From the NCBI RefSeq assembly GCF_001677475.2, contig NZ_CP015229.1: 64,000 nt of DNA; one strand, given 5' to 3'. The DNA comes from Escherichia coli (lineage in GTDB: Bacteria > Pseudomonadota > Gammaproteobacteria > Enterobacterales > Enterobacteriaceae). Of the stretch, positions 52,376 to 55,189 are shown one piece after another (the stretch's first letter is position 1; each line of letters begins with the position of its first letter). Below the pieces are notes generated by a model. It saw nothing but the letters and a program-made list of their open reading frames with translations. It ran no database searches and was not told the DNA's origin. Made by a program: the position numbers and the translations under genes.

Positions 52376-53269
52376 ATGAACATAGTGATCACCGGAGGGA
52401 CGGGATTAATTGGTCGCCATTTGATTCCACGTTTGCTGGAGCTGGGCCATCAAATCACGGTAGTGACGCGTAACCCGCAGAAAGCCAGTTCCGTTCTCGG
52501 CCCTCGGGTGACACTATGGCAAGGGCTTGCCGATCAAAGCAACCTCAACGGCGTTGATGCGGTAATCCACCTGGTCGGAGAACCGATTGCTGATAAACGC
52601 TGGACTCACGAGCAAAAAGAGCGTCTCTGCCAAAGCCGCTGGAATATCACGCAAAAACTGGTCGATTTGATTAATGCCAGCGACACGCCACCGTCGGTAC
52701 TCATTTCCGGCTCAGCAACGGGCTATTATGGCGACTTAGGTGAAGTGGTGGTTACCGAAGAGGAACCGCCGCATAACGAATTTACCCATAAACTCTGCGC
52801 CCGCTGGGAAGAAATTGCCTGCCGGGCGCAAAGTGACAAAACGCGAGTGTGCCTGCTGCGTACCGGCGTAGTGCTGGCACCGGATGGCGGTATTCTCCGT
52901 AAAATGCTGCCGCCGTTTCGTCTTGGCCTGGGCGGGCCGATTGGTTCCGGTCGGCAGTATCTGGCCTGGATTCATATCGATGATATGGTCAACGGCATTC
53001 TCTGGCTGCTCGATAACGAGCTGCGCGGGCCATTTAATATGGTTTCGCCCTACCCGATACGCAATGAACAATTTGCCCATGCGCTCGGTCATGCGCTGCA
53101 TCGCCCGGCCATTTTGCGCGTCCCCGCAACCGCCATTCGGCTGTTAATGGGCGAATCTTCAGTACTGGTATTAGGTGGACAACGCGCGCTGCCTAAACGG
53201 CTGGAAGAAGCGGGTTTTGCGTTTCGTTGGTACGATTTAGAAGAGGCGCTGGCGGATGTCGTTCGCTGA
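52376..53269 (+). CDS. yfcH: Epimerase-family NAD(P)-binding protein YfcH
   Basis: 297-aa ORF with a Rossmann motif ([12 protein letters not shown]). Confidence 0.92.
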
Positions 53270-53316
53270 TGTGGTTTACTGCAAACATCCGCCAGTTAAC
53301 TCCCGGTGTTACAGGG

Positions 53317-54219
53317 TTAGTGGCTTTGCGCGATAAGATCGTCTGGTGAAAGTCGGGTCACCATCATAACTAACTCTCGGTCTAAACCTCTATCCAGCAT
53401 CTCCTGAGCAATACGCAGGGCTTCTTCGCGTTTGCCCAGAATTAATCCATCATTCCGCCCTTCTTCACGTAATCTGTCAGCAATAGTCATCAGTTTCTCC
53501 TTTTCTTGTGGTGCGCGTTCCGCTATCTCACCAATAAATGCACGGAAACGCTGGGCATCTCCCGTTTGTAATACGTAATTAAACAGGGCTTTTAGCTGTC
53601 TGTCATTAGTGTTTCCTGTAACTAGCAGCGAAACAATTTGGTCGACTAATCCCAACAGATCGCGCTGACGAATATGTTTCTGAATTAGCTCCAACAGCGC
53701 CATTTTGCGGTGTTGCATAATCTCGTCATCCGGCACCACGGTAATATCCACCAGCGGAAAAGCCGATGAATAAATTTTGCGGGCAATCGCAGGCTCGGCA
53801 AATTCATCAAGCCAGCAGAGTGAATATGGATAAGGGCTTCTGCAGCCATGATAAAACAGCATCGGGATCACCAATGGAAGCTCTTTATAGCCCGCATCAA
53901 GATGGTTTTGCATTGCCGCAATGGAATAACGCATCATGCGAAAAGCCATTAATTCTTCCAGCTTGCTTTGGTGCTCTATCACTACATAAATATAACCCGC
54001 TCCCTCCTGCGTTTTCACAGACCACAAGAGGTCGGAATAATATTGCCGCAGGTCTTCATCAATAAAACTGTTTGGTTCCAGTTTAAGCGTCGTTAAATCA
54101 CACAGTTTGCGCAGCGGCGCGGGAAGATGAATATCAATAAAATCCCGCGCGGTGTCTGGATGGCGTAAAAAAGATTTAAATACCGCATCATGCGGCGTGG
54201 AAGTTGTCGATATTGTCAT
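53317..54219 (-). CDS. rpnB: Rpn-family recombination-promoting nuclease (putative transposase_31 / PD-(D/E)XK) RpnB
   Basis: 300-aa [36 protein letters not shown]...; the N-terminal region is typical of the YhgA/Rpn family; position between yfcH and hisP matches yfcI. Exact start uncertain. Confidence 0.82.
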
Positions 54220-54415
54220 GGCGTTCCGTCACCCCTCAAATTTAAGATGACGCGACAATAACCACGATTAACACCCAATGCAGCAGGCAGTTTTTATCTT
54301 TGGACAGCGAATTCAGAAGTATTTTTAGCGGACTGCAACTTTTACATTTCAGCGGAAGCTGACTCGCAAATTCCCCTTGAAAATACTCCGGCAGCGTTAG
54401 CCACCGGAGAGGAAA

Positions 54416-55189
54416 TTATTTCAGCGATCCCTTAAGGAACTGTTGCAGACGAGGGCTTTGCGGGTTGCCAAATAACTGCTCCGGCGCGCCCTCTTCTTCT
54501 ATTTTCCCCTGATGGAGGAAAATGACGTGAGTAGAAACATGGCGAGCAAAGCCCATTTCGTGAGTCACTACCACCATGGTTTTCCCCTCTTCTGCCAGTT
54601 GCTGCATAATACGCAACACTTCGCCTACCAGTTCAGGATCGAGCGCCGAGGTAGGTTCATCAAACAGTAAAACTTCCGGTTCCATCGCCAGCGCCCGCGC
54701 GATAGAAACACGCTGTTGCTGACCGCCGGAAAGATGCACCGGATATTTCCCCTGCGCACGTTCGTCTATCCCGACTTTCGCCAGATACTTCACCGCCCGC
54801 TCGCGCGCTTCTTGCTTGCTCAGGCCCAACACCTGAATCGGCGCTTCCATGACGTTTTCCAGCACCGTCATATGGCTCCAGAGATTGAAGTGCTGGAATA
54901 CCATCGTCAGGCGTGTGCGCAGTAAGCGCAGCTGATTTTTATCGGCGACTTTGAGTTGACCGTCTTTGTCGCGCACCAGATTGATCGTCTGGCCATTGAC
55001 CACGATCGATCCTTCACTCGGTTTTTCGAGGAAGTTAATGCAGCGCAGAAAGGTACTTTTCCCCGATCCCGACGATCCGATGATGCTTATGACATCTCCG
55101 GCATTCGCTTGCAGTGACACCCCTTTCAGCACTTCATGTTCGCCGTAGCGTTTGTGCAAATCGATAACGTTTAATTTATTCTCGGACAT
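54416..55189 (-). CDS. hisP: Histidine/lysine/arginine/ornithine ABC transporter ATP-binding protein
   Basis: 257-aa ORF with Walker A (GSSGSGKST) and the ABC signature LSGGQQQR. Confidence 0.96.

Follow-up and report, generated by a model that had tools for sequence, protein, structure and literature searches.

What kind of gene lies between yfcH and the histidine transport operon in this Escherichia coli chromosome, a relic of transposition or something with a function of its own? A preliminary description of the window, by which we mean the whole 64,000-nucleotide stretch of DNA that was analysed, had called it rpnB (yfcI), a domesticated transposase-like nuclease gene of the Rpn/YhgA-like family. 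The name, the place and the family all hold. The encoded protein is 98% identical to K-12 RpnB (YfcI, b2305; WP_000156149.1), the locus is the same and PGAP gives the same name, and profile searches confirm the neighbors as yfcH on one side and hisP on the other, followed away from rpnB by hisM, hisQ and hisJ (Table 1). rpnB and hisP share the minus strand, with yfcH convergent on the plus strand. The protein covers the PF04754 (Transposase_31) profile from position 1 to 202 of 203 at E = 8.3e-91, with 303.5 bits where 21 would suffice, and the Rpn subfamily model TIGR01784 in NCBIfam gives 189 bits (cutoff 52.1). The RpnA equivalog NF007361 was not reached (465 bits of the 583 needed), as expected since the window protein is an RpnA paralogue and not RpnA itself. 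In a megablast search of 5,426 complete E. coli genomes, the locus was found at one place per genome (median), annotated as rpnB and always chromosomal (0 of 5,446 places on a plasmid), and about 87% of E. coli genomes keep it. The 12 kb around rpnB are at most 99.2% identical to any member of the E. coli genome set. The window gene is the already characterized rpnB, intact and in its usual place; its features agree with the published RpnL/RpnS toxin-antitoxin model, and its variation is of a kind already published. Its most informative feature, a nested gene, rpnB_S, together with the repeat that rpnB_S contains, was absent from the earlier reading.

Table 1. Features of rpnB and its surroundings in the window.
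Feature	Position	Strand	Details
yfcH	52376-53269	+	left neighbor; TIGR01777 361 bits against cutoff 207
Perfect 11-bp hairpin, 3´ end of yfcH	53249-53295	+	arms 53249-53259 and 53285-53295; overlaps yfcH end
Segment missing in about 670 E. coli genomes, remnant apart	53296-54309		remnant kept: 53743-53775
rpnB CDS (RpnB_L, 300 aa + stop)	53317-54219	-	uninterrupted ORF, ATG to TAA; PGAP orthologue name rpnB
rpnB_S (57 aa + stop; HTH_Rpn_C three-helix domain; antitoxin)	53317-53490	-	in-frame ATG at M244 (53490-53488)
Second variable tail patch	53359-53397	-	residues 275-287; window identical to K-12; EKGFDHEVILTL in O157:H7 and M-17
Hypervariable xxxG four-residue repeat block	53428-53469	-	residues 251-264; +12 nt relative to K-12 (REEG-AMQG-KH)
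Shine-Dalgarno AAGGAG (codons K240-E241)	53497-53502	-	six nt before ATG(M244)
Candidate internal promoter for rpnB_S transcript	53578-53606	-	ATGACA (53606-53601), 17 nt, TTTAAT (53583-53578)
Transposase_31/YhgA-like domain	53593-54198	-	residues 8-209; N-terminal part is the PD-(D/E)XK nuclease core
D165 of PDDE motif	53725-53727	-	identical in K-12 RpnA
Surviving rpnB interior remnant, codons ~149-159	53743-53775		29/33 match, collinear, same strand, E = 2e-7
R94	53938-53940	-	identical in K-12 RpnA
Catalytic motif D63 ... E82-H-Q84	53968-54033	-	matched to K-12 RpnA
D11	54187-54189	-	identical in K-12 RpnA
Terminator-like hairpin just past hisP stop	54386-54409	-	separates his operon from rpnB; kept in scar allele
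hisP	54416-55189	-	right neighbor; HisP equivalog 578 bits against cutoff 466

The N-terminal core of the protein has the PD-(D/E)XK fold, and its catalytic positions are intact. D11, D63, E82, Q84, R94 and D165 are all identical to their counterparts in K-12 RpnA (6/6), with which the alignment is gap-free to residue 252. The RpnA mutations D11A, D63A, E82A and Q84K each remove all phenotypes (PMC5350276), and Mg-dependent DNA endonuclease activity, toxicity and SOS induction have been documented for K-12 RpnA in vitro and K-12 RpnB in vivo (PMC5350276, PMC10400941). No support was found for the label "domesticated transposase-like": the Pfam name is historical, the core is that of a PD-(D/E)XK nuclease, and Rpn proteins have been argued not to be transposases (Zhong et al., 2023, PMC10400941). 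Strong purifying selection acts on the nuclease domain, where the window protein differs from K-12 RpnB at A74 (V in K-12), L87 (P in K-12) and I118 (L in K-12). The Leu of codon 87 (53959-53961) lies three residues past the catalytic Q84, at a position that is Pro in all other Escherichia alleles examined except that of E. marmotae, which has Ala. Since paralogues vary at residue 87, the Leu is probably a neutral change.

In K-12, translation also starts inside each of the five rpn genes, and the C-terminal tail produced in this way is a small protein, RpnS, that neutralizes the toxic full-length RpnL (Zhong et al., 2023, PMC10400941). For K-12 RpnB, the small protein was detected, and it blocked both the growth inhibition and the SOS induction that depend on RpnB_L (PMC10400941). 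We place the internal start of the window gene at M244 because the RpnA_S knock-out consists of mutations at K240, E241 and M244, and because the published RpnB_S stop mutant "D29" is D29 only when the K-12 sequence is numbered from M244 (PMC10400941). The signals at this position are strongly conserved. Across 8 paralogous lineages whose proteins are as little as 51% identical, GGAG and ATGAC do not vary, not even at the wobble positions of the Lys and Glu codons, and the complete AAGGAG is invariant in 10 sequences. The start of full-length rpnB has a weak ribosome-binding site (GGA).

The small protein has a known structural counterpart. The crystal structure of RpnA-S (PDB 7TH0) aligns to residues 244-299, with E = 0.087 by sequence, and Foldseek matches it to the tail of the predicted model with a probability of 1.00, a target TM-score of 0.75 and 37% identity. 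The family assignment HTH_Rpn_C (PF27070) is a precomputed annotation of homologues at 96-98% identity; with the local Pfam copy, no family was assigned to the tail of the window protein. The full-length AF2 model has a mean pLDDT of 63 and falls below 50 at residues 235-262, comprising the linker and first tail helix, and given this low confidence the model was not used to judge the effect of an extra repeat unit on the helix.

Among rpn paralogues, CTAATGACA-N15-TGTTTAATTA is the longest stretch of conserved nucleotides, and it has the geometry of sigma-70 -35 and -10 elements. It is kept in 7 of 8 paralogous lineages, rpnC being without it. Nowhere else in the gene are invariant third-codon positions so densely clustered, but the clustering is not significant by permutation (P = 0.15). 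Internal transcription start sites are reported for all rpn genes (PMC10400941), and ATGACA-17-TTTAAT may be the internal promoter known from dRNA-seq. A scan for consensus promoters gave no sensibly placed promoter for either transcript and missed this candidate. The spacer at 54220-54415 yielded no sigma-70-like promoter for full-length rpnB; a relaxed scan gave one site only, overlapping the start codon. An Rfam scan of 53100-54600 with E up to 1 had no match, and a 16-codon ORF on the plus strand starting at 54278 is without support as a gene.

We consider it very probable that the Escherichia rpnB orthologue is, as a whole, a two-in-one toxin-antitoxin gene. In this model, RpnB_L (300 aa) would be a Mg-dependent DNA endonuclease of little sequence specificity, with D63, E82 and Q84 as catalytic residues, and would damage the cell's own DNA when left unchecked. 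RpnB_S (57 aa) would be translated in frame from ATG(M244) behind the strong AAGGAG, probably on a shorter transcript of its own, and this three-helix domain, identical to the RpnB_L tail, would bind that tail and block the nuclease. The number of xxxG units in the first helix, three here and two in K-12, would set the specificity of pairing. The likely role would be abortive or limiting phage defense, with promotion of recombination as a by-product of DNA breakage. Toxicity, neutralization by RpnB_S and specificity by repeat number come from published K-12 work, the last for RpnC; to these the window adds the identity of the gene, its intact catalytic residues, the conserved internal start, the polymorphic repeat, a tail in which variation is concentrated, and the lack of transposon ends. 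A phage-defense role of chromosomal rpnB is an inference, phage protection having been published for plasmid RpnP2 only (PMC10400941). Because PADLOC 2.0.0 contains no Rpn model, the lack of a match in its scan carries no information and is no argument against a role in defense.

The nested antitoxin also changes what the locus should be called. To describe it as a gene type associated with horizontal DNA exchange is too simple when left at that, and because of the nested in-frame rpnB_S and the hypervariable four-residue repeat, we label it a toxin-antitoxin gene and candidate defense module. The main significance of the analysis is one of correct annotation, as a PD-(D/E)XK toxin nuclease with a nested rpnB_S rather than a transposase relic, and the second product (53317-53490) is left out by standard gene calls.

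The window allele and K-12 RpnB have in common the yfcH-rpnB-hisP locus, the nuclease residues, the internal ribosome-binding site, M244 and the final 36 tail residues. They differ in length only by 12 nt in the tail, where window residues 255-264 replace the A----MQGKH of K-12, giving three xxxG units instead of two and a protein of 300 aa instead of 296 aa. The indel block starts 11 residues past M244; the published specificity-setting four-residue repeat lies 8-20 residues after the internal Met, and its copy number sets RpnS-RpnL pairing (PMC10400941). Homologues carry from one to eight xxxG units, with protein lengths that step by 4 aa. The window-like 141-nt form is present in about 1,226 E. 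coli genomes and the K-12-like 129-nt form in about 3,500. In the DNA, the additional unit does not form a clean tandem duplication, so what looks like "repeat expansion" may instead be cassette replacement.

Amino acid variation is concentrated in the tail. Between the window and O157 alleles, we counted 15 nonsynonymous differences over ~123 tail sites versus 5 over ~566 sites of the nuclease domain (Fisher P = 2e-8), and pN/pS between tail classes is 0.35-0.73. The RNDG-LILG (+4) cassette is identical in the window and in E. marmotae, and at synonymous sites these two diverge less over the tail (0.19) than over the nuclease domain (0.37; P about 0.02-0.06). Given the shared cassette, the lower tail divergence, the lack of a tandem duplication and the independent assortment of the 275-287 patch, it is conceivable, if still doubtful, that the tail alleles are old, selectively maintained specificity classes rather than products of recent repeat slippage; thin evidence of this kind hints at either cassette exchange or long-lived allelic classes. 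The pattern would fit either a trans-species polymorphism or an exchange of cassettes between species and paralogues, driven by phage counter-defense. The RpnB_S of one class could then not protect against the RpnB_L of another, creating a small incompatibility upon recombination of the locus between strains.

Residues 257-287 (53359-53451) of the tail also resemble the 35-residue pentatricopeptide (PPR) consensus DGL..GK.EEAL....EM...G.....V. Designer PPR proteins were the top sequence matches in the PDB, with summed E values to 4e-11, yet each individual stretch had an i-Evalue above 80; the summed score is an artifact of a recurring helical-hairpin motif, and a PPR relationship was rejected. 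The likeness is probably a shared helical-hairpin pattern only.

How long has rpnB been at this site? E. marmotae carries it at the same hisP-yfcH position, and sequence comparison places it there since before the split between E. coli and E. marmotae. With the synonymous divergence of the nuclease domain, this shared site argues that rpnB is old and immobile. The 65-68% identical relatives in Salmonella, Citrobacter and Kluyvera occupy other loci, and the one in Salmonella sits at feoC-bioH, the rpnA position. Between yfcH and hisP, Salmonella has 51 bp and no gene, C. koseri and one further relative have a GNAT acetyltransferase gene, and Klebsiella has the acetyltransferase gene together with two unannotated ORFs of 84 and 188 aa. 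Across Enterobacteriaceae, this spacer is a replaceable slot. In the search for YfcH homologues, on which Escherichia species were merged in 90% clusters, E. albertii and E. fergusonii are not separated. A blastn and tblastx search of Escherichia spacers for a remnant of the GNAT acetyltransferase gave nothing significant. On the contigs compared, Salmonella has no folX between yfcG and yfcH, and C. koseri has no yfcG.

The genomes without rpnB, about 12% of E. coli, provide a second view of its history. About 680 of the 5,426 complete genomes match the flanks only by megablast, and a comparison of these flanks, which the preliminary description had proposed as a check, revealed a deletion scar with an rpnB remnant and no clean empty site. 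The scar consists of the left flank to 53295, a 33-nt remnant, 6 unassigned nt, and the right flank from 54310, and the left edge of the deletion is the last base of the hairpin at the yfcH end. In E. coli TUM2367, for example, L001:3061-3235 corresponds to window positions 53260-53295, 53743-53775 and 54310-54422. The rpnB-less genomes sampled have one common deletion scar with 21-33 nt of the gene interior kept; the same junction was found at a coverage of at least 80% in 670 of 5,426 genomes and, among the matches listed, the four that are full-length are 100% identical. A microhomology-mediated deletion is suggested by the likeness between the initial 12 nt of this remnant, which read AATATCCACCAG in the gene, and the sequence AACATCCGCCAG that closes the left flank. 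Because the scar retains a piece of the rpnB interior, absence of rpnB in E. coli is essentially one secondary deletion that spread, and not the state before insertion.

Other losses are of different kinds. In E. coli ECNB21-M121 (L008:2938-4894), IS903B splits rpnB near the start of the tail-coding region, and PGAP calls the orphan tail fragment an "ISNCY family transposase". The Shigella flexneri variants P0010 (284 aa) and P0018 (272 aa) have in-frame internal deletions, P0018 being without the stretch that contains the PDDE motif; rpnB in Shigella looks like a decaying gene. Deletion of rpnA-D leaves basal recombination unchanged (PMC5350276) and, together with the loss in about 12% of genomes and the decayed Shigella copies, this indicates that rpnB is dispensable. 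The tail-class frequencies, the single origin of the scar and the replaceable slot offer natural material for testing antitoxin specificity as well as the cost and benefit of the locus.

These observations bear on three other ways of explaining the gene. It is extremely improbable that rpnB came to lie between yfcH and hisP as an IS or as a transposase domesticated in recent times. Such an origin is what the Pfam title ("Putative transposase, YhgA-like") and one NCBIfam model ("ISNCY family transposase") imply, and the contents of the slot, which differ across genera, mean that the gene was acquired at some point. The GC content of rpnB (45-47%, against 50-55% in the flanks) could be read in the same way, and it fits an old foreign origin. 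However, a repeat search around the gene detected no terminal inverted repeats or target-site duplications, bearing out what had been claimed earlier; the repeat pairs that span rpnB are 15-22 nt long with a 72-80% match, lie inside the yfcH and hisP coding sequences, and are at chance level. The PD-(D/E)XK fold is not known in autonomous transposases (PMC10400941), and the shared site and divergence in E. marmotae speak for an old, immobile gene. The earlier statement that rpnB is not an active IS element stands up on three counts: it has no ends, it occupies one chromosomal place per genome and never a plasmid, and the "empty" site is a deletion scar rather than a pre-insertion site.

A second alternative, that the primary function is to promote RecA-independent recombination and so help to integrate incoming DNA, with the small protein only tuning the nuclease, seems to us decidedly unlikely. 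Overexpression of K-12 RpnB in a conjugal assay did increase RecA-independent recombination 19-fold (PMC5350276), an effect from which both the gene name and the framing of the preliminary description derive, but it requires overexpression accompanied by 98.7% killing (PMC5350276), and the rpnA-D deletion noted above had no basal effect. Hypervariability confined to the antitoxin/oligomerization helix fits an arms race better than housekeeping recombination. More serious, though on balance unlikely, is the possibility that rpnB is a selfish or neutral addiction module of no benefit to the host, kept by toxin-antitoxin logic and drift and heading for loss. The one deletion found in about 670 genomes, the IS903B interruption in one strain and the in-frame deletions of Shigella would all be expected under such a scenario, and no defense phenotype has been published for RpnB itself. 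Purifying selection on the nuclease domain, with every catalytic residue kept, speaks against it, as does the retention of the gene by the great majority of E. coli genomes and by E. marmotae, and the diversification of the tail suggests selection, not decay. A toxin-antitoxin gene with a likely role in defense remains the reading we prefer.

Apart from K-12 RpnB, the known systems close to the window RpnB include RpnA (YhgA), the biochemically characterized member of the family, which is 66% identical and has the same K240-E241-M244 internal start and three-helix tail. It differs in its locus, feoC-bioH, and in having one xxxG unit, and the K-12 RpnA_S and RpnB_S do not cross-neutralize (PMC10400941). 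Plasmid RpnP2 from ECOR13 protects against T-even phages (PMC10400941). By its published description (PMC10400941), RpnP2 belongs to the same family and has the same gene-within-gene layout of RpnL and RpnS; in contrast to chromosomal RpnB, for which no defense phenotype is known, it is plasmid-encoded and has a demonstrated one. The PD-(D/E)XK defense and restriction nucleases compared, namely HamA of Hachiman, Shedu SduA, McrC, MspJI and N.BspD6I, are 7-15% identical to RpnB and have other partners, and none is regulated by an intragenic antitoxin as RpnB is. The four-residue TAEL repeat of EcoR124I and EcoR124II offers an analogy, drawn by Zhong et al. (PMC10400941), in which the number of repeats in a helix changes specificity as it does in Rpn proteins. 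In the type I restriction specificity subunit, however, it is the spacing in DNA recognition that depends on the repeat, whereas the Rpn repeat sets toxin-antitoxin pairing.

A few homologues have unusual architectures. P0014, a single-member ENA metagenome protein, is RpnA-like over residues ~1-112, with one difference from K-12 RpnA in the first 112 positions, and RpnB from ~113. P0019, also a single-member ENA metagenome protein, joins the N-terminus of another paralogue to the RpnB(+4) tail. Both could be either true paralogue recombinants or assembly chimeras. In P0027, an E. coli protein of 361 aa annotated as "ISNCY family transposase", the tail is present as a tandem duplicate with the QKERLMTIAERLRQEGHQIGWQEG segment repeated, and this protein is probably a fusion with the downstream extra small-protein gene (RpnSs) of Zhong et al.
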